DNA of 20,000 bases, taken from NCBI GenBank assembly GCA_048213135.1, contig PS015033.1, positions 46,432 to 66,431 on the forward strand, given 5' to 3'. A program made the position numbers and the translations under genes. Below the pieces are notes generated by a model. It was not told where the DNA came from, made no database searches, and saw nothing but the letters and a program-made list of their open reading frames with translations. Every line of letters starts with the position of its first letter. The first letter of the stretch is position 1. This stretch comes from Reclinomonas americana ATCC 50394. Taxonomy: Eukaryota. This document shows positions 1 through 18,714 of the stretch, piece after piece.

Positions 1-3000
1 ATTCCTCGGTCTCTCGCCGCAGCTCTGTTGCGTGTCTCTCGCTTGAAGTGCCAAGTCAGTCTCTGTCTCACAGTGACGCACGCATGTGCACGCAGGGCTG
101 CTGTACATCAACATCGCGTTGTACGCGATTGCCTTTCAGTTTCGCGCTCACTCTCTCTCTCTCTCTCTTCCTCCTCCTCCTTCTTGCTCTTCCTGTTGTT
201 GTTGTTCTCTCTCTCTTCTTCTCCTCTTCGTTCTCCTGTGTCTCCTTGTCTTCATCTTCTTCATCTTCTTCTTCTTCTGATACTCTTTCATTTACTCACT
301 CCTCTCCTCTCCTCCTCCCTCTTTCTCCCTCTCTCTTTCTCCCTCTCTCTTCTTCTTCTCCCCCTCCTCTCTCTCTCTCTCTCTCATATTCCTCGTTCGC
401 AGGATGCAAATGCCTCTCTTACCGCACTTGTCCAAGCAACTCGGCGCCGACACCAGCGACTATGCGTACATGCAAACCGCCTTTGCGGTGGTGCAGTCTG
501 TGGGTGGAGTGCTGGCGGGACCGCTGATGGATCGCTTTGGGCCGAAGATTGTCGTTGAGTGGCGAGAGGGAAGGAGGGAGGGAGGGAGAGAAGGCGACTT
601 GACAATGAGAGCTCCATGCCCTCTTCGGCATGTTTCCTGCTGCCGATTGGTACAGTGGAGCATGCTTGGGGTTGTCTTCGCCCTTTCTGTTCGAGGCACC
701 TCTCTGCAGTGAGAAAGACTCTCAAGACGAGAGTCTGAACGTCTGTCTTGGTTGTCTCAGTCTCCACTGTTCAAGGCACCTCTCTGCAGTGAGAGAGAAA
801 CTCGATCTGGTCCTGCTACCTGCACCACTGTGACCAACAACTCGAGAGTGCCTTTGTTGTCTTTAGTCTCCGCAATGAGAAAGACCAGAGTCTGGCACGT
901 CTTTCTTGGTTGTCTCCACTCTCCGATGAGCTCTTTCTGTCTGTGTCGCCTCTCTGCAGTGAGAGAGAAACTCGATCTGCTCCTGCTTCCTGCGCCACTG
1001 TGGCCAACAAGCCGAGAGTGCCTTTGTTGTCTCGAGTCTCTTTAGATGTGCATTTTCTGTCGAGGCATGTGAAAGACCTTCAAGACTGGAGTTTGGCACG
1101 TCTTTCTTGGTTGTCTCCACTTTCCAACGTGCTCTTCTGTTCGTGTAACTTCTCTGCTGTGAGAGAGAACCTGTCATGTGGACTCCAGTGCCTTCGATAT
1201 GAAGTCAGTTCTGCATGCACTCAACCACTGAGGGAACATCTCTCTTTGTCGTGAGCACGTGCAGACCATCCTGTGCCACCAGCCAATCACATTGTTTCCT
1301 TTGCGTGCTGCCAGAGCACTACTTTCTAATCATCCCTCTCGCAGCTCCTGATGTCTTTCGGCTCAAGCGCCCTGTGCTACATGCTCACGGCCATGGCATC
1401 GTCAATGGTTCAGTCAACCCGCTCTCTCTTCCCCGTCGTCAATTTATTTCGCTGACAACCCTCTTCCCCTTCCGTCTTCCGTCCTCCTGCCTTCCGTCTT
1501 CCCCCTTCCCCTTCCCCCACTCTGTCTTCCCCCCTTTCCGTCTTCCCCCCTTTCCGTCTTGCCCCCTTCCGTCTTAACCCCGTCCTCTTCTCCCTCCCCT
1601 TTGCCCTCTTCCGTCCTCCTCCCTTCCGTCCTCCTCCCTTCCCCCTCCCCCTTCTCTTCCCACCTTTACCCCTTCCCCTTTTTCTCCCCCCTTTCCCTCC
1701 CCAGACCTGGCTGGTCCTCTCGCGCCTGCCAACACTCTTCCAGCACAGCTTCCTGGCCGGCAACGCACTGGTCACACTGCTCTCCGACGACAAGAACCGT
1801 GCCAGGCTGCTCGGCTACGTCGGTCTCGCCTACGGTATGCACCAACCGTCTCACTCCTCCCCTCCGTATTCTCATCGCCGTCTCTCCACGCACAGGTGTC
1901 GGCTTTGCTGTCGGTGTGTCTTTCACATGCGTCCCTCTTTGTGCAACTCGAAGCCTCACCACCCCCTTCTCATCACCAGGTCCGGCGATTGGCGGTATTC
2001 TGAGTGACATTTCGCTGCAGTTTGCGGCCTGGGTTTCGTCGGTGCTCTCCCTCGTGTCCATGGTGTGGATGACCGTGTCCATGGTCAACCCGGTGCCGGT
2101 GGCGCTCGCCACCCCCGGCAGCTCCTCATCGTTGCGCCCTTGGTCTTCAATGTCTACCGCACGCAGATTCTACATTGCTTACTCTCTCGCGCTTGCAGAC
2201 AAGAGATGCAGCCACTCACGGCGGGCGAGACCGATCAGGAAGTCGACGATGTCGCCAACGACCCGCCCAAGGCTTCCGCCACGAGCACTGGCGGTCGCCT
2301 CTCCGACATTCTGCGAGTGATGCGAACTGGCAATGTGCCGTCGCTACTCATCATCAAGATTGTCGTCGGGTACGTCTGTTATTGTGTCTCCCTTCTGCAC
2401 TGCTTGCCTAACTTACCGACCGTGCAGGTTTGCCACGGCACTCTTCCACTCCATTATGTCCATGGTGCTGGCTGTCGAGCCCTTCTCGCTCGGACCTCGT
2501 GAAACCGGTGCGTTGCGGACGTTGACGAGAGGCGTGTGCTGTCTTTGCTGACAATGTTTTGCAGGTTACTTGATGTCGTATGTGGGAGTGTTGGCTGGTA
2601 AGCTCTTCTTGTGTTCTCATTTCCCCTCTTCTTAACGGTTGTTGCATCGATGCATGATCCGTCGCCTTCTTTTTGTTCTTCTTCAATTTTTCTGTGATTA
2701 CCACTCACTGAAGCTCGTTGGGTGGTCAGCGGTGACACAGGGACTGGTGATTGGCTGGGCGACACGCCGATTCTCATTCAACAACATTGTCCGCGTGTGC
2801 ATCTTGGCACTGGCTGGCGCATGTTGCGTCTCATGTCTCGCGAGAGTTGAGACGAGATTATCGACGACTCATTCGCGGGATTGTGTGTAGACTTTGGACT
2901 CATCTACGCCACTAACGTGTGGTTCCTCGTCCTCGATATTATTCCCATGGTCATTGCCGGTTCGCTGTTGGCCAACGCCATCACAACACTGGTACGTGAA

Positions 3001-3399
3001 AGAGAGAGAGAGAGGGATGCGAAGCGGTCACTTCGCTCATTGTGCTCCTGCAGATGACCCTGAATGTTCCCAAGTCCAACGCTGGCACCGTGTCGGGCGT
3101 CGATATGGGGTCTCTATTGTCTCTCTTCGCCCCAACTTTAATCACATCTGACTCACCTTCTCTCGTCTCGCAGCATTTCGTCGGGCGTGCGCGTGTTCTC
3201 CCCAGCCGCCGGTGGCCTCATCCTCAGATACTTTGGCTTCTCGTACGTCGGCGGCATTTGCTCCATGCTCTCCCTCGCCACTTTCGCTCTGCTACAAGGT
3301 ACGGATGATGCCAGCTCCTCTGCCTTCCTCGCCATCTCCTCACACACTGGTACAGGTGGCGTGCTCAAGGTGGAGGCCACCGTCACGAAATCCGAATGA
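1..3399 (+). CDS. MFS transporter, SLC22A18-like (DHA1/tetracycline-efflux-type); 5' end outside window; 14 introns in window
   Basis: Frame-consistent exons <1-26, 96-138, 403-553, 1345-1407, 1705-1834, 1896-1913, 1980-2130, 2199-2369, 2428-2507, 2565-2597, 2730-2822, 2891-2991, 3054-3109, 3174-3298, 3356-3399. Translation ..LWLLYINIALYAIAFQMQMPLLPHLSKQLGADTSDYAYMQTAFAVVQSVGGVLAGPLMDRFGPKIVLLMS.. carries MFS motif A (GPLMDRFGPK), later RARLLGYVGLAYGVGFAVGPAIGGIL (motif-C-like) and multiple hydrophobic segments. SLC22A18 likeness is from recalled family sequence, not a search. Confidence 0.88.
690..1175 (+). repeat. Degenerate ~170-bp tandem repeat inside MFS intron 3
   Basis: CCTCTCTGCAGTGAGAGAGAAACTCGATCTG..GAGAGTGCCTTTGTTGTCT at ~780-860 and ~950-1030, with partial copies at ~700 and ~1150. 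Confidence 0.8.
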
Positions 3400-3477
3400 T
3401 AGATACGCACACACGCGCAGAAACGAGTCCGACGAACAGCAGCGGCTCATTACATGGATTCTTGTTCTCTTTTTTTG

Positions 3478-4951
3478 TTAAAAAAGCTTGAGCTTTCCTG
3501 TTACTGCGTCGATACGGCTCTTGTAGTCTGCGGAGGGATGATATGTCAAGGCAGAAAGCGAGGTGTGAAGATAGGGCGAGGAAAAGAGACGAACCAGGCC
3601 CGAATGCCACACTGCATGCACAGAATGATGAGTCTCTCGTGTGCATACTGATAAAACATAAGCAAACACAACGCACCACGTCAACGATCCCGATTCAACC
3701 TGCGACAATGGGAAAGAATGGGTGAGCTGTTGTATATTTCGAAGGGAGCACGGTGTCGGCATCTCACCTGCGTACGACCGGCATCGAAAATGGGGCACGC
3801 ACTCACTCCAGACCGCTCAGCGGCACTGAACAGCGCCATTCTGGTTTGCCGCAACGCATGAGACTCTGACGAGGATCGAGAAAAGGAAAGAACCGACATG
3901 AAACACGCAACAGTGTGCCCGCATTCCTCGTCCGCAACACGATGATTGGCTCGCCATTGACCTCCCAGTGCGACCGCAACAGTGCATTCGCTGCCTTGGC
4001 GCCACCCAACGCCGCATGACAGCACTGCGACGAAATCTTGCCCGTCGACTGCGTGCACAAAGAATGAGCACAGCACGACATAACATGCAAGCACAGGTCG
4101 ACGCTCACCATTTTCAAGTCTTCGCGCACAACGATAATCATCCGCACCTCGCCAGAACGCGGATCGTCGCCCTCACCCGCAGCCGGCGGCGGTGGTGGCG
4201 CCGCACCAGCCATCATCGACAACAACTGCGCGGTCAACGAGTCGAATCCTACTGCCCCGAATGGACAAGTCTGAGACAGAAGAAGAGAACAAACAAAGAA
4301 AGTATGAAAGGAAGTGAAAGAAAAGGAGAGAGAACGAAAGAGAGATAGAGAAAGAGAGAAAAAGAAGAGAGAAGGGCAGAGACAGATAGACAGACAGACA
4401 GAGAGAGAGAGAGAAGGGCAGAGAGAGAGAGAGAGCGAGAGAGAAAGATAGAAAGACATGGAGGCAAGAAGATGCCGCGAACCTCCAGGCGCCATGGATC
4501 CAGAAGCCGACGAGCCACCTGGTGGAGCTGGAGGAGGCCCAGAAGAGGCCTCGCCGGCAGGGGAAGCATGCTGCAACAAGTGACAAGCTCAGACAACTCG
4601 GGAAGGCCTCATTTGGTCATTCAGTCACTATCCGTTCTCAGTCTCTCTCCCTCAGCCCACTGTGCATGCTCCCATTGGTTTCTCTTCTCCCTTCATCTCT
4701 CAGACTCTTCCCTTGATCTCTGCTCCTCAGTCTCCCTTCGCCTCTCATTGCTGTGCTTCTACACTCTCTCTGTGCCTCTGTTGCTTTCTCTCTCTCTTCT
4801 CATTCTCTCAATGCCTGTCCCCTTTGCACCTTCTCTCCCTTCTCTCTCCCTCTCTCTCCCTCTCTCATTCCCCACCTGCATGAACTGCTCCTCATCCTCA
4901 TCCACCAGATCCTCCGCCAACGCCACCGCTGTTTGCATGCATGCAAGAGTG

Positions 4952-5033
<82 letters not shown>

Positions 5034-5248
5034 GTACGTACACGTACCGTACGTACCGTACGTACGTACCGTACGTCCGTACCGTACCGTACCGTACCGT
5101 ACCGTACCGTACCGTACCGTACCGTACCGTACCGTANNNNNNNNNNNNNNNNNNNNCCGTACCGTACCGTACCGTACCGTACGTACGTACGTACGTACGT
5201 ACGTACGTACGTACGTACGTACGTACGTACGACGACGACGACGACGAG

Positions 5249-5324
<76 letters not shown>

Positions 5325-5527
5325 ATCACTATCGCACCTTCCTCCACTGTGCTGGCCACAGTCGCCAACGCCTCAGACTTGGTTTGCGAAAAGCCCAACG
5401 CGATCAGCTCATTGTAAACCTCCACGCTCCTGTGTTATAACAATGAGACACAAGAGAGAGTGAGACTCTGCCTCTCTCACACACACACTGACCCACAGAA
5501 TGTCGACGAAGGCGGTGCTGATGCCAT
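3478..5527 (-). CDS. PTH2: Peptidyl-tRNA hydrolase 2 family protein with N-terminal UBA-like domain (~236 aa, 10 exons)
   Basis: Exons 5527-5493, 5429-5338, 4928-4876, 4570-4483, 4251-4109, 4048-3912, 3840-3768, 3699-3677, 3611-3595, 3527-3478. Hallmark motifs RMIIVVREDLKMSTGKISSQCCHAA, IIVLR, DAGRTQVESGSLTCVAFGP and IDAVTGKLKLF*. N-terminal exons are less certain than the PTH2 domain. Confidence 0.92.
4955..5322. repeat. Compound microsatellite (GA)n-(GTAC)n-(GTACC)n-gap-(GTACC)n-(GTAC)n-(GAC)n-(GA)n in PTH2 intron 2
   Basis: Read directly; N gap at 5137-5156. Confidence 0.95.
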
Positions 5528-5552
5528 GCTTTCTCTCTCAATCTTTCTTTTA

Positions 5553-6630
5553 TCAATCAGATGACAGTGACTCATCACTGCTCGGAGGTGACACTGGTCG
5601 CGTCTTGTTGCCCGATCGCGTCTTTGGTGGACTGCCACTGGCCATCGGCTTCTCCTTCTTCTTACTCGTCGTCTTCGTCTTCGCCTTTGTCGGTTTCTTC
5701 TTCGTCTTCTTCGTTGATGGTGGAGTTGTCTTGCGACGCTTGCGAGGTGGCGAGGCAGCGGCTGTTGTTGTCTCGGAGAAGACGGCGAAGCCTGATCCTT
5801 CAGAGTCCGAGTCGATGAGGTCTCTGGTCGACGTCGGTCGCTTCTGCTTCTTCTTCTTCTTCTTCGTTGCTGCTGCGTCTTCCTCCTCCTCCTCATCGTC
5901 GTCGTCCTCGTCGTCTGAGCCCAGCATGCCCTTGGCGCGTTGCTGCTCGAACCACTGCTGGTACTCCATCTCCACTTGCTCTGCAAGAGACTACAGGTCA
6001 GCAGGGAGTGGAAGACACAAGAGAGATGATGCCGTAACTGTTGCGTGCCGGCTGCTGCGCCGTGTCATCGTCCTCGTCACCACCGTCACTCTCGTCCTCG
6101 TCCTCGTCCTCGAATGTGTAATCAAAGTCGTACACTCGCTCACGCGCCTGCCGGCGAAGACGCTCGTCCACGTTCTCCTCCTCTCCTTCTTCCTCCTCAT
6201 CCGCAAAGTCGGACATGCTGCGTGTCGATGGAAACGCAGAGAGTGACGAGGTTGAGCCGTTGCGTTTTCGAGGAGGGCGAGGCGCGCGTGATGGGGCGCT
6301 GCTGCTGCCACGAGGGCGCGCACTGGAGCGCTGTGGGAAAGGTAAACAGAAATGGTCAGCAAAGGAGAGAGGGAAGGAGGGGAATAGGGAAAGGGCGAGC
6401 AAATGGGAGAGAGATGGGGGAGAGCAAGAGGGGGAGAGCGGGAGACCGAGAGTGAGAAGGTGGAGAGCGAGAGGGGAGAGCGAGAGGGGAGAGCGAGAGG
6501 GGAGAGCGAGAGGGGAGAGCGAGAGGGAGAGCGAGAGGGAGNNNNNNNNNNNNNNNNNNNNGTGGGGAGAGCGAGTGGGGAGAGCGAGTGGGGAGAGCGA
6601 GTGGGGGAGAGCGAGAGAGCGGGAGAGAGC

Positions 6631-6662
<32 letters not shown>

Positions 6663-8474
6663 GAGAGAAGAGCAAGAGAGAGCCATGAACTGCATGTCGC
6701 ACCGTGTTCTTCTTCAGCAGTCGGAAGAATGCACCCGCTCGCAGTCGACACAGCGTCGACTTATTCTCGGTGTGGCTGTACTCCAAGCGTGAACGACGGA
6801 ACTCCTGCAGCAGTGTTGAGTGCACTCTCTCGCGCACGCAAAGCCCAGCGCAACACACCTTGCCCTCGGCTTGCAATACATCCGAAATCGCCTTGGAAAA
6901 CACCGTGCCCGTGTCACCCAGGTCAGCCGCGGCACGCTGGCCCACCGTCTCCACCGCTGTGCGAGCAAGGAGATTTCAGTTCAAGCACCAATTTCACACT
7001 CAATCATGCTGACGATGACGCAACGCTGCGCCGCCAAGTGCCTCTTGGCCAACTCGTACGCCTCCGACGCATTCAACACCTGGCGCGGATCGAACAGGTC
7101 GCCACCGCACAACGCCTCCGAACCACGCAGTCGCGCACCGTCGCCCAGCAAGCAACCAATGGGCACCAGTGGATTCCGTTCGCTGATCACGGTGCGCGCG
7201 GCGAGCAGTGCATCGACCACCGACTCGGACGGCTGCTCGAACACGGGAGTCGTCGCGCCGAGAAGGACTCGTGGTGTCTCCTGTGGGTGTGACCAGAGAA
7301 GAGTCTGAGAGAGTGCGACATAGAGAACAAGGAGAAGGCGATGACAGGGAGAAGTGATCAAGTGAAGAGGCTGAATCCGATCCCACCTCGTACACGTACC
7401 TCCAATCCACCAAACGTGCGTACGCGGACCGCGGCCTCGTATTCCGGTGAAATGGTGCTGGATGGAGGCAATTGCGGTGGCGGTGGTGGTGGAGGAGGAG
7501 CCTCGACTGCTGCCGCCGCTGCTGCAGCCGCCGCCGCCACCGCCTGCCCCGCGTTCCGCTTCTCCTTCATACGCCGCCACTGCTCCAGTTGCGCCTCGTT
7601 CAGCAGCTGCTCGGCCGCCGGCTCCGGCAACTCCCGGCCCTTCTCCAAACACACTTGCACGAGCGGATGCGGTGGCATGCGCTGCGGTTCCGCCTGCACG
7701 AATCGCTCACCGCGTCGCTCCAGCTCCCTCACGAATACCTTGGATCGCGGATCACACAGTGCGCGCCACACGCGCAGCGCGTCCAGCATGCGTCGCTGCA
7801 TGAGCACCCGTCCCAATCGCTGCAGCTCCTGACTCAGCTCCACCGACACTGGAATGCGCAGTGGCGGCACCGACTGCTGCCCGACAAAGAACGCATAGAG
7901 GGCGTACAGAGCGCCGACTTTGACGCGCAGGTCGGCACTGATGCTCAGAAAGGCGGTGCATGTGTTGAACAGCTCGAACACGAATTGTCGGTCGTCCACG
8001 TTGTCGAGGGAGCTCACGTAGGGCATGAGGATGCCCATGTGGTGCTCACGCCACAGTCGTTTGAAGGTGGTGAAGGAGCAGTCGCCCTCCTGAGAAAAGG
8101 GAGAGGGGAGGAAGGGGGAAGGAAGGAGAAGGGTGAGGAGAAGGGGAAGGAGAAGGGGTGTGGAGAAGGGGGTGAGGAGGGGAAGGAGAAGGGTGAGGAG
8201 AAGGGGGAGAAGGGGAAGGGGGGAGAGGAAGGGGGAAGAGAAAGGGGAAGAGAAAGGGGGAAGAGAAGGGTAAAGAGAAGAGGGAAGAGTGGGGAAGAGA
8301 AGGGAAGGAGAAGGGGAAAGAGAAGGGGGAAGGAGAAGGGGGAAGACAAGGGGGAAGGAGAAGGGAGAAGAGGAAGGGGAAGAGAAGGGGGAAGAGGAAG
8401 GGGAAGAGGAAGAAGAAGAACATGGAAAAATGAGAGCAAATGAGTGATGAGAATGCAGAGTTGTCAGATGCAAT

Positions 8475-8527
<53 letters not shown>

Positions 8528-8679
8528 TTGTGTGTGAGTGAGAGAGAGAGAGAGCNNNNNNNNNNNNNNNNNNNNGAGACCTGTTCAAACTTGAGCAACA
8601 ACGTGCGAATATCCTTGACATGCGCCGGCACTCTTGCATCGTTAAAGTACGCGCGGAAGTTGATGCGCTCATCGCTCAT
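5553..8679 (-). CDS. SNAPC1: snRNA-activating protein complex subunit 1 (SNAP43-like), ~662 aa with acidic and Lys-rich low-complexity tail
   Basis: Exons 8679-8581, 8089-7400, 7304-7025, 6956-6859, 6804-6703, 6330-6039, 5980-5553, all in phase. N-terminus DIRTLLLKFEQEGDCSFTTFKRLWREHHM..LRVKVGALYALYAFFVGQ..LRIPV fits the SNAP43 pattern (D-I-x2-LL-x2-F, F-x2-F-x3-W, R-x2-VGALY-x-LY-x5-Q). C-terminal KKKK and RKRRK stretches are NLS-like. Confidence 0.8.
8092..8420. repeat. Polypurine/polypyrimidine tract in SNAPC1 intron 1
   Basis: About 330 nt of almost only G/A on the + strand with many GGG/GGGG runs. Confidence 0.9.
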
Positions 8680-8755: not shown

Positions 8756-10965
8756 TCAGACTTCGATGGGAGCAAAGGCAAGCTTGCGCGTGCGCTGCTG
8801 CTGCTGCTGTGGCTGGAGGTACTGGTGCACAGCAACGGAGATAGGCGAGATGGTGGCGGACGGAGGCAGTGCCAGAGGCGAGGGCATGTCGACCGAAGTC
8901 ACCGGCTGCGGTCGCGGCTTGCGACCGGCCTGCAGGGCGACCACGGCGAGCGGGATGGCCTCGACAATCACCTCCTCGTCATCGTCGTCTTCGTCCTCCT
9001 CTGCATCATCATCGTCATCGTCATCGTTGCCGTCGAGGTCGGCGGCGATAAAGAGCTGCTTGGTGAAGTCGCGGAGGAGCGAGCGCGGGGCAAGTCGAGG
9101 CTGCGGTGTCACGGCCGGCGAGGGACCGGGGCCGCTGCGTGGCGGTGTCGATGTGTTGCTGTCGAGGCTGCTGGTCAGCGACGAGTAGCCGTGCGGTTGC
9201 GTGGACACGTCGGCGTGCTGCTCCTTGTTGGTGGGGGTGGCGATGGTGTTGTTGTTGTTGTTGTTGCCGTCGAGAAGCGCACGCAGAGCGGCGCCGGCGT
9301 TGGCCATGGCCTGAGCGGAGGGCGATGGCGGCTCGGTGCACGATCCGCGCGTGGCCTTGCCCGACGAGTGCTTGGAGGTCGCGGAGTCGTCGGTGTCGGG
9401 CTGCTGCTGTCGCCACTGGTCGAGCTCATACTGTGTGCCATACGTGAGGAAGCTCGTCGTTGGTGTGCGCGAATGACAAGCAGCTGAAAGACACTCACCA
9501 TAAACTCGAGTGCCTCCGAGTTGGTGTCAAACACCACAGGCGAGGCGCCGGCTCGCGAACTCTGCGTCGGCGTCAGGTAGCGCGCCGTGACCGCCGCCGG
9601 TCTCTTCGAGCGCCCGCTATTCGCCTGCGACGAGCACGCCATGGCCCAGTCGGACTCGGTCGCCGCCGTCGACCCGCTCTCCACCGTCTCCAGATCCGTA
9701 AACGACTCGAGCGCATACATGACCAGCCGTTGCGACTGGCGCGACGCATCCACACCGTGCGCCACCAGCATACGCCCATCCAGCACCACCGGCGACGATC
9801 GCCGCGGCGCACGCAGCACTCCAGCCACCATGCGCGGCAGAGGCACACTCGCGCGTCGCGGATCCTCCACCGACTCGCCACCGCACTGGCTTCTCGTCGA
9901 GGATATCTGCACACGGGGCGCACGATACATGAGAGACGTGATCGGACAAGCCCAGCACCAATCAACAATACACTTTAGCAGAACACACTCTTTCGCACAC
10001 ACACACACGCACACACACACAAGTGTGGGAAAGTGTGTGTTAGTGTGCGGAAGTGTGCGGCAGTGTGCGGAAGTGTGCGGAAGTGTGGGAAAGTGTGGGA
10101 AGTGTGGAAAAGTGTGGGAAGAGTGGAAATGTGTGGGAAGTGTGGGAAAGTGTGGGAAAGTGTATAGGAGTGCGTGGAAGTGCGTGGAAGTGCGTGGAAG
10201 TGCGCGTAAGTGCGCGGAAGTGTGTGGATGTGTGTGTGTGTGCACTATGTACATACTTTCCACGCACACACGCACACAATTACACACACTTTCCCACACT
10301 TCCATACACTTCCACACACTTTCCCACACTTCTACACACTTCCACGCACTTCTATACACTTCTAAANNNNNNNNNNNNNNNNNNNNCACACCCTTCCCCT
10401 TCAACACACCTTATCCTGATCATCCTCATCGTCCTCCTCCATCATGGCACACGACGAGCAGCGCGGCAAGGCGTCCTCCAGGGCCGCCGCACTCGCACGT
10501 CGCTGAGTCATCGCCGCCACCGCCGCCGCCGGCAAGTGCTGAAGGCGGCGACTGGCGCGCCGGCCAGTGCGCACAGGCAGAAGCAGCCATTGTGGCACCG
10601 GCATCTCTTGTTCCTCCTCGCGATCGACGGACTCGGATTGTGGCTGCAGCACCTCTGTGGGGAGAGTGTGGTGGTGGCGGTGACCGCCACTGGCTCGCCG
10701 CGTGTGCTGCTTGGCGGTTGCGGCGCTGCTGTGTGTATTGGGGACAGATGTGAGTGTCCGTTCCTGTTCTCTCTCTTCTCTCGCTCTCTCACACACACCT
10801 GTTTGTTGGCACTGCGGAGGCGTCTGTGTGTGTGGAAGGCGAGGCAGCGCTGTCGTTGTTGCTGCTGGAGAGCTTTTGTGGACTGTCATTGTTGTTGTTG
10901 GTGTTGTTGTTGATGTTGTGGAGGGGAGAGAGACGCGCAGTGGTGCGCGAGGATGAGCAGCCCAT
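8756..10965 (-). CDS. Hypothetical protein (~522 aa) with N-terminal myristoylation/palmitoylation motif MGCSSS and possible PH-like central domain
   Basis: Exons 10965-10799, 10728-10410, 9906-9499, 9430-8756 join in frame via GTGTGT/GTGAGT..CAG introns and end ..KLAFAPIEV*. Product not recognised. Confidence 0.7.
9996..10366. repeat. Intronic 10-mer minisatellite (AAGTGTGGGA-like) followed by its inverted complement (CACACTTTCC-like)
   Basis: 10021 AAGTGTGGGAAAGTGTGTG is the exact reverse complement of CACACACTTTCCCACACTT at 10283. Confidence 0.85.
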
Positions 10966-14067: not shown

Positions 14068-15247
14068 CGTTGTCAAGATATCGGAGAAATCCTGTTTCAA
14101 GTGTCTCCTGCATGTGACACAGCGATGGTGGCACTGCTGTGCTTTCTGAGCAGTGGCTACGTCTGTGATTGGTGACCACGCTTTCGCCTCGAAGCACGTC
14201 GTGAAGACAAGTGCAACAGGAGAAACCAAACGCATGCCTTTTGGCTGTGTGCGTGGCAGCTTTCCATCCTTTCACACTGCATGCGACACTTAAACACGAG
14301 AGAGACACACACACGCCTCAGCGATCCTCCACACAGCAGTGAGGGATGACGTAATCGGGGGAAACAGGAAACCCAAAGTGATGCGCAGATTCGTTTCAGC
14401 AGTGCTCCATCACTGCGCGCACATGTGTGAAGGGCTTCTTCTGCCATCGCAGCTTGAGCATGTGACAGCAGGGTGGGGAAAGGAAGAAAAAGCAACAGAG
14501 GAGCAATGCACCAATGAATCTTGCATCCACATGCTGTGTACACGAAGCATGCGCTGCCACTCCCCACCAGACACATAGACACAAGGAGGTTGCTGGAGGG
14601 GCGTTCCTCGCTGTGCACACACGCACCACTGACAGAAATCGAACATGTTGTGGAGAAAAAGGGAATAGTCGACGACGTCATCAAGTTGTCTTCTTCCGTC
14701 TCCCTCTCTCTTCTCTGCAACACCACTGGCGACGGCGCAGTTTGGTATGACGCGCAACGTAGTTTGTAGGATACCTCAAGCTAGCGCTTCCGATTGGTGC
14801 AAGAGTGAAACGCAAGAGAGTGAGTGATCATGATATCACTGTGCGGTATCCCACAGTGCGTGCATGAAACATAGAGCTCGTGGTGGTGAGCCTGTCTTCA
14901 AAAGAAATCCTGTTGCTTGTCTTTTTTCCTGCTGACATGCAAGATTCACACGACGATTGGTGATTGGCTGCCTCGGACATGTTGGTGACAGCGCAGAGTG
15001 GCACTGTACTGTGTACAGTGTTGTGCCTCATGCACTCACGCGGTGAATGAAGCACAGAGAGGTGTGCATGGCATGAACAGCGTCTTGTGCAAGCAGCTAC
15101 GAATTCCCTTTTTTTATGCGAAATGCATCTCTGAAATGCCCTTCCGCCCGCGATGGCAAGTCTGGCCATTTTAGGCGAGTTGCCTTTGGCCCCACCATTT
15201 TCGGCCTTCCAAGTGCAAACTCACCCAAAAATGGCCATGCGCAGGGG

Positions 15248-15254
15248 TATAAAG
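15248..15254 (+). promoter_or_regulatory. Putative TATA box of Cys-rich gene copy A
   Basis: TATAAAG about 70 nt upstream of the ATG in GC-rich context; copy B has CATAAAG at 17442-17436. Confidence 0.5.
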
Positions 15255-15318
15255 CGTCCAATTTCCGACCTGTCACTTTCTTACTCGTTCCGAGAGCACA
15301 AACCACCTCCCCCCCATC

Positions 15319-15352
15319 ATGAAGATCGCTGTNNNNNNNNNNNNNNNNNNNN

Positions 15353-15403
<51 letters not shown>

Positions 15404-15893
15404 GCAATGTCACTGACTCTCCCTCTCCATGGCCAGGTGCGCTCCGTGCGCCAACGGCAACACCGGTGGCTGCAACCCGAATGGTGCTTGCAAGGCCAAC
15501 GGCTGGTGCGACTGCCACTACCAGTGCAAGAACTACGCGTCGGTGGCTGCTGGCGCTGCGTGCCCGCCTGGCGCCGACAACCTCGGCAACGGCAACTGCT
15601 GCAAGAAGGCATGGGGTGCTCGCTGCCAGTACACTCTGCCCGACACCTGGACTGGCACGCCGCCGCCGCCACCGCCGCCACCGGCTGTGTGCACCAACAA
15701 CCCGGGTGCCTGCAACCCGAACGGCAAGTGCAAGGCCGACAACACTTGCGAGTGCTACGCCGTGTGCCAGAACATCCCGGCCGTGGCCGCCGGCACGGAG
15801 AGCTGCCCTGGCACCAGCCAGAACTTGGGCAACGGCAACTGCTGTGGCCAGCAGACTGGCGCCAACTGCCAGATCTCGCCCTTCGACTCGTGA
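15319..15893 (+). CDS. Secreted Cys-rich protein with two 10-Cys EGF-like repeats and a poly-Pro linker (copy A; exon 1 cut by an N gap)
   Basis: ATG 15319 MKIA.., gap 15333-15352, acceptor CCAG then exon 15437-15893 CAPCANGNTGGCNPNGACKANGWCDC..PPPPPPPP..GANCQISPFDS*. Near-identical to the intact copy B. Confidence 0.85.
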
Positions 15894-16754
15894 GCACGAG
15901 TTGGGAGAAGGGTGATACCACAACAAGTGAGGACGAAGTGAAAGCTTTTCCAACCCGTGTGGTGATTGTGATGGGTCTCGTGTATGTTTTAGGCACGACA
16001 AAGTGCAGGCGCATTCATGAACACAAGAGGTGTCAACAAAACAGCACAGCGACAACAGGCTGGAAATGGAAACTTTCACTGATCACCAGTATTGTTGTGA
16101 TATCGAACATATCTGCGCGTGCACTGCGACATGACAAATCAACAACGGTAGTACTGATTCACGCTCCATCGCAGCTGCATGATGAACACCGGCACCGGCT
16201 GCCATGAGTGGAAACAGCGCTACGCCAGCGCTGGAGGTCGGCAGGACGGATGCAGATTGAGAAAAACACTTCAACAACAACAACAATTCATTCACCAACA
16301 AACAAGCAACAGCTGTCTTGATGACCAAGTTCAACCGTATCCAAAACATCAACACAGACACCAGTCTTGAGGCAGCACCACATTCCAATAATGCGACAAA
16401 TGTCCGATACGGAATGCAAGATGAAGACGGAAAGGAGTGGCGTGTGGCGAGGGAGTGGGTTGGAGAGGCAGCAGCAGAGAAGTGCAATGAAGATGGTCAT
16501 GTCGCAGTGCACTGTGGCTCTTCAGCAGTGCATGCGCAGATATCGGAGTTCAACAATACTGGTGATCAGTGAAAGTTTCCATTTCCAGCCTGTTGTCGCT
16601 GTGCTGTTTTGTTGACACCTCTTGTGTTCATGAATGCGCCTGCACTTTGTCGTGCCTAAAACATACACGAGACCCATCACAATCACCACACGGGTTGGAA
16701 AAGCATTCACTTCGTCCTCACTTGTTGTGGTATCACCCTTCTCTCAACTCGCGC

Positions 16755-17369
16755 TCACGAGTCGAAGGGCGAGATCTGGCAGTTGGCGCCAGTCTGCTGG
16801 CCACAGCAGTTGCCGTTGCCCAAGTTCTGGCTGGTGCCAGGGCAGCTCTCCGTGCCGGCAGCGACGGCCGGGATGTTCTGGCACACGGCGTAGCACTCGC
16901 AAGTGTTGTCGGCCTTGCACTTGCCGTTCGGGTTGCAGGCACCCGGGTTGTTGGTGCACACAGCCGGTGGCGGCGGTGGCGGCGGCGGCGTGCCAGTCCA
17001 GGTAGCCGGCAGAGTGTACTGGCAGCGGGCACCCCATGCCTTCTTGCAGCAGTTGCCGTTGCCGAGGTTGTCGGCGCCAGGCGGGCATGCAGCGCCAGCA
17101 GCCACCGACGGGTAGTTGCGGCACTGGTACTGGCAGTCGCACCAGCCGTTGGCCTTGCAAGTGCCATTCGGGTTGCAGCCACCGGTGTTGCCGTTGGCGC
17201 ACGGAGCGCACCTTCATGATCAGGAAGGAGAGAGAGAGAGAGAGAGAGTGTGTGTGTTAGCTATAGTGACGTTGCAGGAGAGAGAGGAGAAAGGAGAGAC
17301 AACACACCATTCGGCGGCAGCGACGGCCACGAGGAGGGCCAGGACGGCGACAAAGACAGCGATCTTCAT
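16755..17369 (-). CDS. Secreted Cys-rich protein with two 10-Cys EGF-like repeats (copy B, 172 aa)
   Basis: Exon 1 17369-17308 encodes signal peptide MKIAVFVAVLALLVAVAAAE-W; intron GTGTGT..GAAG; exon 2 17211-16755 is 457 nt, the same length as in copy A. Confidence 0.88.
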
Positions 17370-18647
17370 GATGGGGGGGAGGTGGTTTGTGCGCTCGGAA
17401 CGAGTAAGAAAAGTGACAAGTCGGATTCTTGGACGCTTTATGCCCCTGCGCCTGGCCATTTTTGGGTGTGTTTGCACTTGGAAGGCCGAAAATGGTGGGG
17501 CCAAGGGCAACTCGCCTAAAATGGCCAGACTTGCCATCGCGGGCGGAAGGGCATTTCGGAGATGCATTTCGCATAAAAAAAGGGAAGCTGCATACACAAG
17601 ACGCTGTTCATACCATGCACGCCCCTCTGTGCTTCATTCACCACGTGAGTGCATGAGGTACAGCACCGTACACAGTACTGTGCCACTAGGCGCTGTCATC
17701 AACATGTCCGAGGCAGCCAATCACCAATCGTCGTGTGAATCTTGCATGCATGTCAGCAGGAAATAAGACAAGCAACAGCGAGGATCTCTTTGAAGAGAGG
17801 CTCGCCCACCACGAGCTCTGTGTTTGATGCACGCACTGTGGGATACCGCACAGTGATATCATGATCACTCACTCTAGATCTCTTGCGGTTCACTCTTGCA
17901 CCAATCAGCAGCTTGAGGTATCCTACAAACTGCGTTGCACGCCATGCCAAACTGCGCAGTCGCCAGTGGTGTTGCAGAGAAGAGAGAGAGAGAGAGAGAC
18001 GGAAGAAGACAACTTGATGACGTCGTCGACTTATCCCTTTTTCGCCACAACATGTTCGATTTCTCCGCTGGAGTCAGTGGTGCGTGTGCACAGAGAGGAA
18101 CGCCCCTCCAGCGACCTCCTTGTGTCTGTGTATTTGCTGGGGGGTGGCAGCGCATGCTGCGTTCGTGTCCACAGCATGTGGATGCAAGATTCATTGGTGC
18201 ATTGCTCCTCTGGTTGCTTTCTCTTTCTCTTCCTTTCCCCACCCTGCTGTCACACGCTCAAGCTGCGATGGCAGAAGAGGCCCTTCGTGCGTGTGTGTGC
18301 AGTGATGGAGCAGTGAGGGAGTGAAACGAATCTGCGCATCACTTTGGGTTTTCCTGTATTCCCCCGATTACGTCATCCCTCACTTCTGTGTGGAGGATCG
18401 CCGAGGCGTGTGTGTGTCGCTCTCGTGTTTAAGTGTCGCACGCAGTGTGAAAGGATGGAAAGCTGCAGAGCGCAGCCAAAAGGCATGCGTCTGGTTTCTC
18501 CTGTTTCACACTTGTCTTCACGACGTACTGTGAGGCGAAAGCATGGTCACAGTGACGTAGCCACTGCTCAGAAAGCACAGCAGTGCTACCATCGCTGTTT
18601 CGCGTGCAGGAGACACTTGAAACAGGATTTCTCCGATGTCTTGACAA

Positions 18648-18714
<67 letters not shown>

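Follow-up and report, generated by a model that had tools for sequence, protein, structure and literature searches.

Two donor classes among the GT-AG introns of a 20-kb window from Reclinomonas americana and a possible recognition register displaced by one base

In a 20,000-nucleotide stretch of DNA from Reclinomonas americana ATCC 50394 (contig PS015033.1, positions 46,432 to 66,431; this whole stretch is referred to as the window), the sequence at the 5′ splice site (donor) of an intron is linked to the last base of the exon that precedes it. Within the window this link is genuine, and chance falls far short of explaining it. On balance, the sequences of the sites favor the existence of two donor classes of ordinary GT-AG introns, one of which would be recognized in a register shifted by +1, i.e., one base downstream. 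The window is intron-rich eukaryotic nuclear DNA with a G+C content of about 54%, many microsatellites and runs of N. Our sample comprises 29 introns in five genes, and the gene models were built independently of the intron list of an earlier sequence-only reading of the same DNA. All 29 modelled introns have the properties of U2-type GT-AG introns, that is, they start with GT, end with AG and restore the reading frame upon removal, and each of the five spliced models is open through to the stop. The donor consensus of U12-type introns is RTATCCTT. It is present in none of the 29 introns, and this intron type was rejected.

A non-G exon end (A, C or T) precedes eight of the 29 donors; every one of these eight carries T at position +3 and G at position +6, and all of them lack G at +5. 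In the group of 21 donors that follow a G-ending exon, +5G is found in 17 and a single one is of the shifted type (position 1408, GTTCAGT); the donors lacking +5G in this group are 1408, the two GTCTC donors at 3110 and 8580, and that of the uncertain first intron of the gene for peptidyl-tRNA hydrolase 2 (PTH2) at 4518. Shifted sites thus account for 9 of the 29 introns, or about 30%. Fisher's exact test yields p = 2.1e-6 for all 29 introns and p = 0.010 for the 12 homology-ranked introns of the MFS transporter gene alone. Along the five gene spans, 29 of 490 non-G/GT sites on the sense strand combine +3T with +6G, and given this background the probability of encountering the combination at eight out of eight donors by chance is about 1.5e-10. 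Seen from the opposite side, -1G is present at all 20 sites without the extra U and absent at eight of the nine sites that have it.

The nine shifted donors are listed here with the coordinates of their first seven intron bases; a slash in a donor sequence marks the cut.

27..33, plus strand: T/GTTGCGT, donor of MFS intron 1 (27-95, 69 nt)
139..145, plus strand: A/GTTTCGC, donor of MFS intron 2 (139-402, 264 nt)
554..560, plus strand: C/GTTGAGT, donor of MFS intron 3 (554-1344, 791 nt)
1408..1414, plus strand: G/GTTCAGT, donor of MFS intron 4 (1408-1704), shifted type after a G-ending exon
2131..2137, plus strand: C/GTTGCGC, donor of MFS intron 7 (2131-2198, 68 nt)
2823..2829, plus strand: T/GTTGCGT, donor of MFS intron 11 (2823-2890, 68 nt)
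3905..3911, minus strand: T/GTTGCGT, donor of PTH2 intron 3 (3911-3841, 71 nt)
6032..6038, minus strand: A/GTTACGG, donor of intron 5 of a SNAPC1-like gene (6038-5981, 58 nt)
7018..7024, minus strand: C/GTTGCGT, donor of intron 3 of the SNAPC1-like gene (7024-6957, 68 nt)

The sequence-only reading had placed eight such heptamers after non-G exon ends, at 27, 139, 554, 2131 and 2823 on the plus strand and at 3911, 6038 and 7024 on the minus strand, and had stated that all of them begin with GTT and have G at +6 instead of +5. The heptamers are indeed found at these places, and our independent models return the same eight as the sole donors after non-G exon ends. The totals given at the time, 34 introns with 26 G-ending exons, are replaced by 29 and 21, but the pattern itself and its exceptions (1408 and the two GTCTC donors) recur, with the uncertain donor at 4518 as an addition. 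The tie to a non-G exon end is strong within the window (8/8 donors after non-G ends; 9/29 introns shifted), and the description as a "strict rule" that covers a "quarter of introns" is based on five genes in a single 20-kb segment.

A position matrix derived from 19 ordinary donors of the window was used with leave-one-out scoring to compare the two registers. All 19 ordinary donors score higher in register 0 and all nine shifted sites score higher in register +1, the scores of the latter lying between -8.5 and -0.7 in place and between 0.3 and 5.2 one base downstream. Donor 1408 behaves in the same way despite its G-ending exon (1.71 in register +1 vs -0.73 in register 0). A poor match in place combined with a good match one base downstream is what characterizes a shifted register at the sequence level, and this combination is found at nine of nine sites. 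The proposal that the shifted donors represent the ordinary motif displaced by one base was therefore borne out. At 6038, for example, the motif equals the ordinary donor GTACGG (3299) with one additional T. The same picture emerges when base compositions are compared between shifted (n = 9) and ordinary sites (n = 20) with an offset of one position:

Shifted -1: T3 C3 A2 G1; ordinary -2: T7 A7 C4 G2
Shifted +4: G6 T1 C1 A1; ordinary +3: G11 A6 C2 T1
Shifted +5: C7 A2; ordinary +4: C8 T7 A4 G1
Shifted +6: G9; ordinary +5: G17 C3
Shifted +7: T6 C2 G1; ordinary +6: T13 C3 A2 G1 N1

The resemblance of position -1 in the shifted class to position -2 in the ordinary class is predicted by a register model. 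Taken together, the matrix scores and the mirrored compositions reduce the data to one frame, G-(G/U)-U-R-M-G-U, that is cut before its first GU. Phrased in this way, the rule that a non-G exon end goes along with a GTT donor is equivalent to saying that the frame cannot do without its first G, and donor 1408 is a shifted site whose free exon-end position happens to be G. The G/GTCTC donors at 3110-3116 (plus strand) and 8576-8580 (minus strand) have no +5G and match the ordinary motif weakly. The former is ranked best by the homologue profile described below and the latter reaches into a run of N; the two may constitute a third, minor donor type.

The placement of the cuts was assessed donor by donor. 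For the MFS gene, a profile was constructed from 31 homologues, leaving out the model itself, and all frame-keeping, stop-free GT/GC-AG pairs within 36 nt (110 variants) were scored as alternatives. In addition, the junctions were inspected for gaps in a 26-row alignment, and the counts given here refer to the homologues that cover the respective junction. The modelled junction takes the top rank at 12 of the 14 introns, including those with donors 27, 139, 554, 1408 and 2823. The model leads at 139 (best of eight alternatives, by 26 bits; gapless in 22/22 homologues), where the junction falls into an FQ/MQxP motif common to MFS homologues, at 1408 (best of five, by 10 bits; gapless in 24/25) and at 554 (best of six, by 6.7 bits; gapless in 25/25). 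Donor 27 is the best of three alternatives with 440.1 bits vs 438.5 bits for a GC donor 3 nt downstream; it is gapless in 17/21 homologues, and its split codon encodes W, matching the row of the closest homologue. Donor 2823 is the best of 10 alternatives, exceeds the GC donor 3 nt downstream by 2.5 bits and is gapless in 19/19. Profile ranking fails at two introns, 3299 in the C-terminal tail and 2131 in a variable central loop. In the latter case, the homologue profile favors deletions among 24 alternatives, so that it provides no placement, and the model is based on the change of frame, on the good quality of the acceptor and on an intron length that is typical.

For PTH2, the exon upstream of donor 3911 matches three PTH2 profiles up to positions 58/115, 58/115 and 60/117; with chain 1q7s_A, the match reaches residue 58. 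The model leaves 57 residues to the stop, which is the remainder of all three profiles, and of 41 frame-keeping alternatives the modelled junction alone results in the profile length. This junction is tested by length only, because the second exon (24 aa) matches nothing in Pfam, NCBIfam or PDB sequences. Donors 6038 and 7024 of the SNAPC1-like gene are each one among 23 frame-keeping pairs and were chosen not on homology but because their acceptors are better, their lengths (58 and 68 nt) are typical and coding-like sequence is kept; 7024 is the sole pair that combines a pyrimidine-rich CACAG acceptor with the typical length of 68 nt. The earlier reading held several junctions to be fixed by conserved protein frame. 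Homology supports the MFS donors 27, 139, 554, 1408 and 2823 (by profile) and 3911 (by length), and the evidence for 2131, 6038 and 7024 consists of frame and signal quality.

These placements bear directly on the possibility that the shifted class is an artefact of the gene models and that other donors are really used, such as GTT/GCGT 3 nt downstream of the modelled cut or an upstream G/GT in the case of 6038 and 7024. The small deficits of the GC alternatives at 27 and 2823 (just 1.6 and 2.5 bits below the model) and the existence of frame-keeping G/GT alternatives at 7079, 6083 and 6080 speak in its favor. However, four of the nine sites (139, 554, 1408 and 6038) have neither GT nor GC at +4, an extra residue would disrupt 19/19 gapless rows at 2823 as well as the PTH2 length match, and the sites at 7079, 6083 and 6080 lack +5G and entail poor acceptors or the loss of coding-like sequence. 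We therefore consider such an artefact very unlikely. Tandem donors of the GC-AG or GYNGYN type were rejected likewise: they are possible at the five GTTGCG sites only, and they score lower at 27 and 2823.

Alternatively, the cut might always be made after the first G of the motif, in which case both ends of the shifted introns would lie one base downstream and the introns would read UU...AGN. Protein comparison is blind to this scenario at four sites, since the product would be the same at 27 and 139, as G is the first base of the exon that follows, and the change would be synonymous at 2131 and 3911. It would nevertheless violate the GU-AG rule in nine introns, although GT-AG accommodates all 29 models. 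Furthermore, the base after the acceptor in the shifted introns is A in 5/9, C in 2/9 and G in only 2/9 cases, and we assign this scenario a very low probability. The acceptors of all 29 introns are nearly all CAG; G follows the acceptor in 11/29 introns overall and in 9/20 introns other than the shifted ones.

The reading that we favor is that the first recognizer of the 5′ splice site would read one and the same seven-base motif, G-(G/U)-U-R-M-G-U, in both classes, and that the cut would be placed before the first GU within this motif. If the second base of the motif is G, the cut would fall after the first G and the exon would end in G (G/GURMGU). With U in second place, the first G would become intron position +1 and the exon end would be free to vary (N/GUURMGU). 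For about 30% of the introns of the window, the register of recognition would then lie downstream of the cut by one base. At the level of the sequence motif, this register reading is well supported. As to the reader, we infer that it is the U1 small nuclear RNA (snRNA) 5′ end, in which case the intron +1G would fill the slot normally occupied by the exon -1G, and U6 and U5 would subsequently fix the cut at the GU.

Several points weigh against this reading. Pairing energies were calculated with a human-type 11-base U1 5′ end, which may differ from the organism's own U1, and with this partner the shifted register yields only 0 to -3.8 kcal/mol for the shifted sites. Among the nine sites, the shifted register is strictly the best in three, it is tied with a register containing a bulge in two, all registers give zero in three, and the bulge register is better at 1408. 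Moreover, a shifted U1 register would also put the contact of U6 with +5G/+6U out of register. On the side of the gene models, 2131, 6038 and 7024, i.e., three of the eight donors after non-G ends, depend on frame and signal without homology support, and the donors of a low-complexity gene (G5) and of a cysteine-rich gene were picked by appearance. For comparison, the canonical register gives 0 for 8/9 shifted sites, the bulge register yields 0 to -3.9 kcal/mol for the shifted sites, and ordinary donors reach -3.6 to -11.2 kcal/mol. The weak energies of the shifted sites imply either that U1 is not of the human type, or that much of the recognition falls to proteins or U6, or that nearest-neighbor energies are too crude for such short helices. 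The earlier idea that the +1G takes over the "-1" slot of U1 is thus in line with the displacement of the motif and is not helped by the energies for a human-type U1. A search of the whole window with Rfam revealed no snRNA, only sub-threshold matches to repeats.

The main rival explanation is the bulge +2/+3 register. Here, +1G and +2U would pair in the ordinary way with U1 and later with U6, one U of positions +2/+3 would be looped out, and positions +4 to +7 would pair as +3 to +6. The shifted motif can equally be read as an ordinary donor with one inserted U, the energy of the bulged register is at least as good as that of the shifted register at 3/9 sites and best at 1408, and +1G and +2U would remain in place for U6. 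According to the available part of the source, this register is predicted for 54-68 human sites, and the donors of the window are similar to these in that they resemble the consensus with a U added after the GU (PMC4856993, Table 3). Yet the bulge offers no reason why the inserted U should accompany a non-G exon end. The bulge model, as far as that text goes, holds exon position -1 in its normal slot, and the penalty for a bulge should even raise the need for -1G; here, the extra U is present at 9/9 sites and a -1G that could pair at only one of them, while none of the other 20 sites is without it. The energies do not separate the two registers. Overall, we regard a bulged U as rather unlikely.

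A dedicated factor is another option, either a second U1 variant (e.g., one with an additional base at its 5′ end) or a lineage-specific protein that would read GUU donors in a register of its own. It would agree with the very weak pairing of GUU sites with the standard U1 5′ end in every register, and the divergent GTGCGTG donors of Ostreococcus have, in the available part of the report, prompted the suggestion of snRNA changes (PMC2483917). On the other hand, the downstream halves of both donor classes share one motif and a single recognizer would be simpler, which makes a separate factor distinctly improbable in our view.

The two versions of the motif were also compared with respect to their occurrence outside donors. 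On the sense strand of the genes, the tight shifted motif GTT[GA][CA]G is found seven times as a donor and three times within exons, and the corresponding numbers for the ordinary motif are 16 and 10. The shifted motif thus marks donors about as specifically as the ordinary motif does. The exonic, apparently unused copies of the shifted motif are located on the minus strand at 3938 and 3980 (both GTTGCGG) and at 6854 (GTTGCGC). All three lack +7T, which is present in 6/9 real shifted donors. No difference in length (p = 0.26) or phase separates the shifted introns from the others. An introner-like repeat family as the source of the shifted introns was rejected: for 19 short introns, core identity among shifted introns averages 0.56 with a maximum of 0.63, compared to a mean of 0.51 and a maximum of 0.66 among the others.

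Shifted-register 5′ splice sites of human genes were reportedly described by Roca and Krainer in 2009, and 5′ splice sites using the bulge +2/+3 register are said to have been treated by Roca et al. in 2012. According to the accessible portions of the literature, a shifted U1 register has been shown experimentally for some human sites (PMC4856993, PMC11162779), and validated non-canonical registers together make up 1.5% of human 5′ splice sites, with shifted ones forming a small part of these (PMC4856993). The sites of the window resemble these human sites, as portrayed there, in being cut at GU with the bases that match the recognizer one position downstream and in an exon end that need not be G; the "Shifted +1" oligonucleotide (PMC4856993, Table 2) has A before the GU. 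They differ in that human shifted sites are rare, whereas here they amount to 9/29 introns and are tied to the exon end, and in that the sites of the window keep a U in the slot that would face U1 A7 if U1 has the role proposed here. Two classes in which the intron supplies what the exon end lacks are also reminiscent of the donor classes defined by U5 and U6 (PMC11732430) and of the association between exon-end G and +5G (PMC8283771), to judge from the accessible text of both papers. The U5/U6 classes, however, use one register and combine weak exon ends with a strong +5G, whereas the opposite applies here, with +5G at 0/8 non-G ends and displacement of the motif as a whole (PMC11732430). Strict GTGCGTG donors occur in Ostreococcus (Irimia and Roy 2008, PMC2483917). 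The ordinary donors of the window include GTGCGT, and the shifted ones can be written as GT+T+GCGT(G). In contrast to Ostreococcus, for which the accessible part of that article mentions no shifted class, the window is intron-rich and its donors are varied (+3 G11 A6 C2 T1). For a lineage-wide class of shifted donors, no description was found in the literature that was covered, which was incomplete for subscription journals and excluded supplements; what it offered on shifted registers was human work.

It is quite conceivable, although we stop short of calling it probable, that the pattern reflects a eukaryotic lineage whose 5′ splice sites are specified by an obligatory G-N-U-R-M-G-U frame distinct from the place of cleavage, such that roughly one quarter to one third of its introns would have their cut one base upstream of where it normally lies in the frame. 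If so, register-shifted recognition would be a normal, genome-wide part of the splicing code, probably accompanied by changes in U1, U6 or associated proteins, and what is a rare oddity in humans would be a routine splice signal here. Such a genome would provide a natural system with a regular offset of one base between binding at the 5′ splice site and the position chosen for the cut, an offset for which a few dozen human sites and engineered minigenes have so far been the only study objects, and it would offer a direct handle on how U1, U6 and U5 divide the definition of the cut among themselves. In practical terms, gene finders trained on G/GTRNGT would then mis-model about one in three to four introns in this genome and its relatives.

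The genes from which the introns were taken are given below, together with a second copy of the cysteine-rich gene.

2..3399, plus strand: MFS transporter gene, 15 exons and 14 introns, 5′ end outside the window
3478..4569, minus strand: PTH2 gene, 7 exons and 6 introns, first exon and intron uncertain
5553..8679, minus strand: SNAPC1-like gene, 6 exons and 5 introns, long acidic and basic tail
8756..10965, minus strand: low-complexity gene G5, product beginning with MGCSSS, 4 exons and 3 introns with three ordinary G/GTG donors, in frame to the stop
16755..17369, minus strand: copy B of the cysteine-rich secreted protein gene, 1 intron (donor G/GTGTGT), in-frame model
15319-15893, plus strand: cysteine-rich secreted protein gene, copy A, donor within a run of N

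The spliced MFS model matches homologues over its full length, the best match having 37% identity across 387 residues (E 8e-78). With a single 50-residue exon as query, a profile-free HMMER scan retrieved 73 MFS homologues, and the nearest named protein homologues stem from green algae. Word-index protein searches with single MFS and PTH2 exons gave no match, and metagenome scans with an MFS exon and a SNAPC1 exon gave no relatives. The MFS gene contains a micro-exon of 18 nt (1896-1913, plus strand) that encodes VGFAVG, part of a conserved glycine-rich motif, and both flanking junctions are gapless in 24/24 homologues. Exon 3914-4048 of the PTH2 gene matches Pfam PF01981 (PTH2) with an E value of 2e-6. 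SNAPC1 is a subunit of the snRNA gene activating complex. The SNAPC1-like gene was assigned by Pfam PF09808 (E 3e-16) and Atlas matches to SNAP43 clusters. It seems to run in frame across 6703/6330 into an acidic and then lysine-rich tail, and because this junction is in frame, two apparent genes within 5553-8679 (minus strand) were joined and are probably one. Gene G5 matches no Pfam family.

Beyond the genes, palindromic microsatellite blocks are present at 9985-10350 and 5040-5240, in which a GTGTGGGAAA-like unit faces its own complement, along with (CCGTA)n/(ACGT)n; they produce many Rfam microRNA matches, all below gathering scores. A large inverted duplication extends over approximately 14100-16100 (plus strand) and 16550-18650 (minus strand) and holds both near-identical genes for the cysteine-rich secreted protein with a proline linker, the open reading frames of which lie at 15417-15893 (plus strand) and 16755-17213 (minus strand). 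MFS intron 3 (791 nt) contains, as seen by eye, tandem units of about 180-240 nt at 640-1200 (plus strand), and similar repeats are visible by eye across 12.8-14 kb and 18.8-20 kb.

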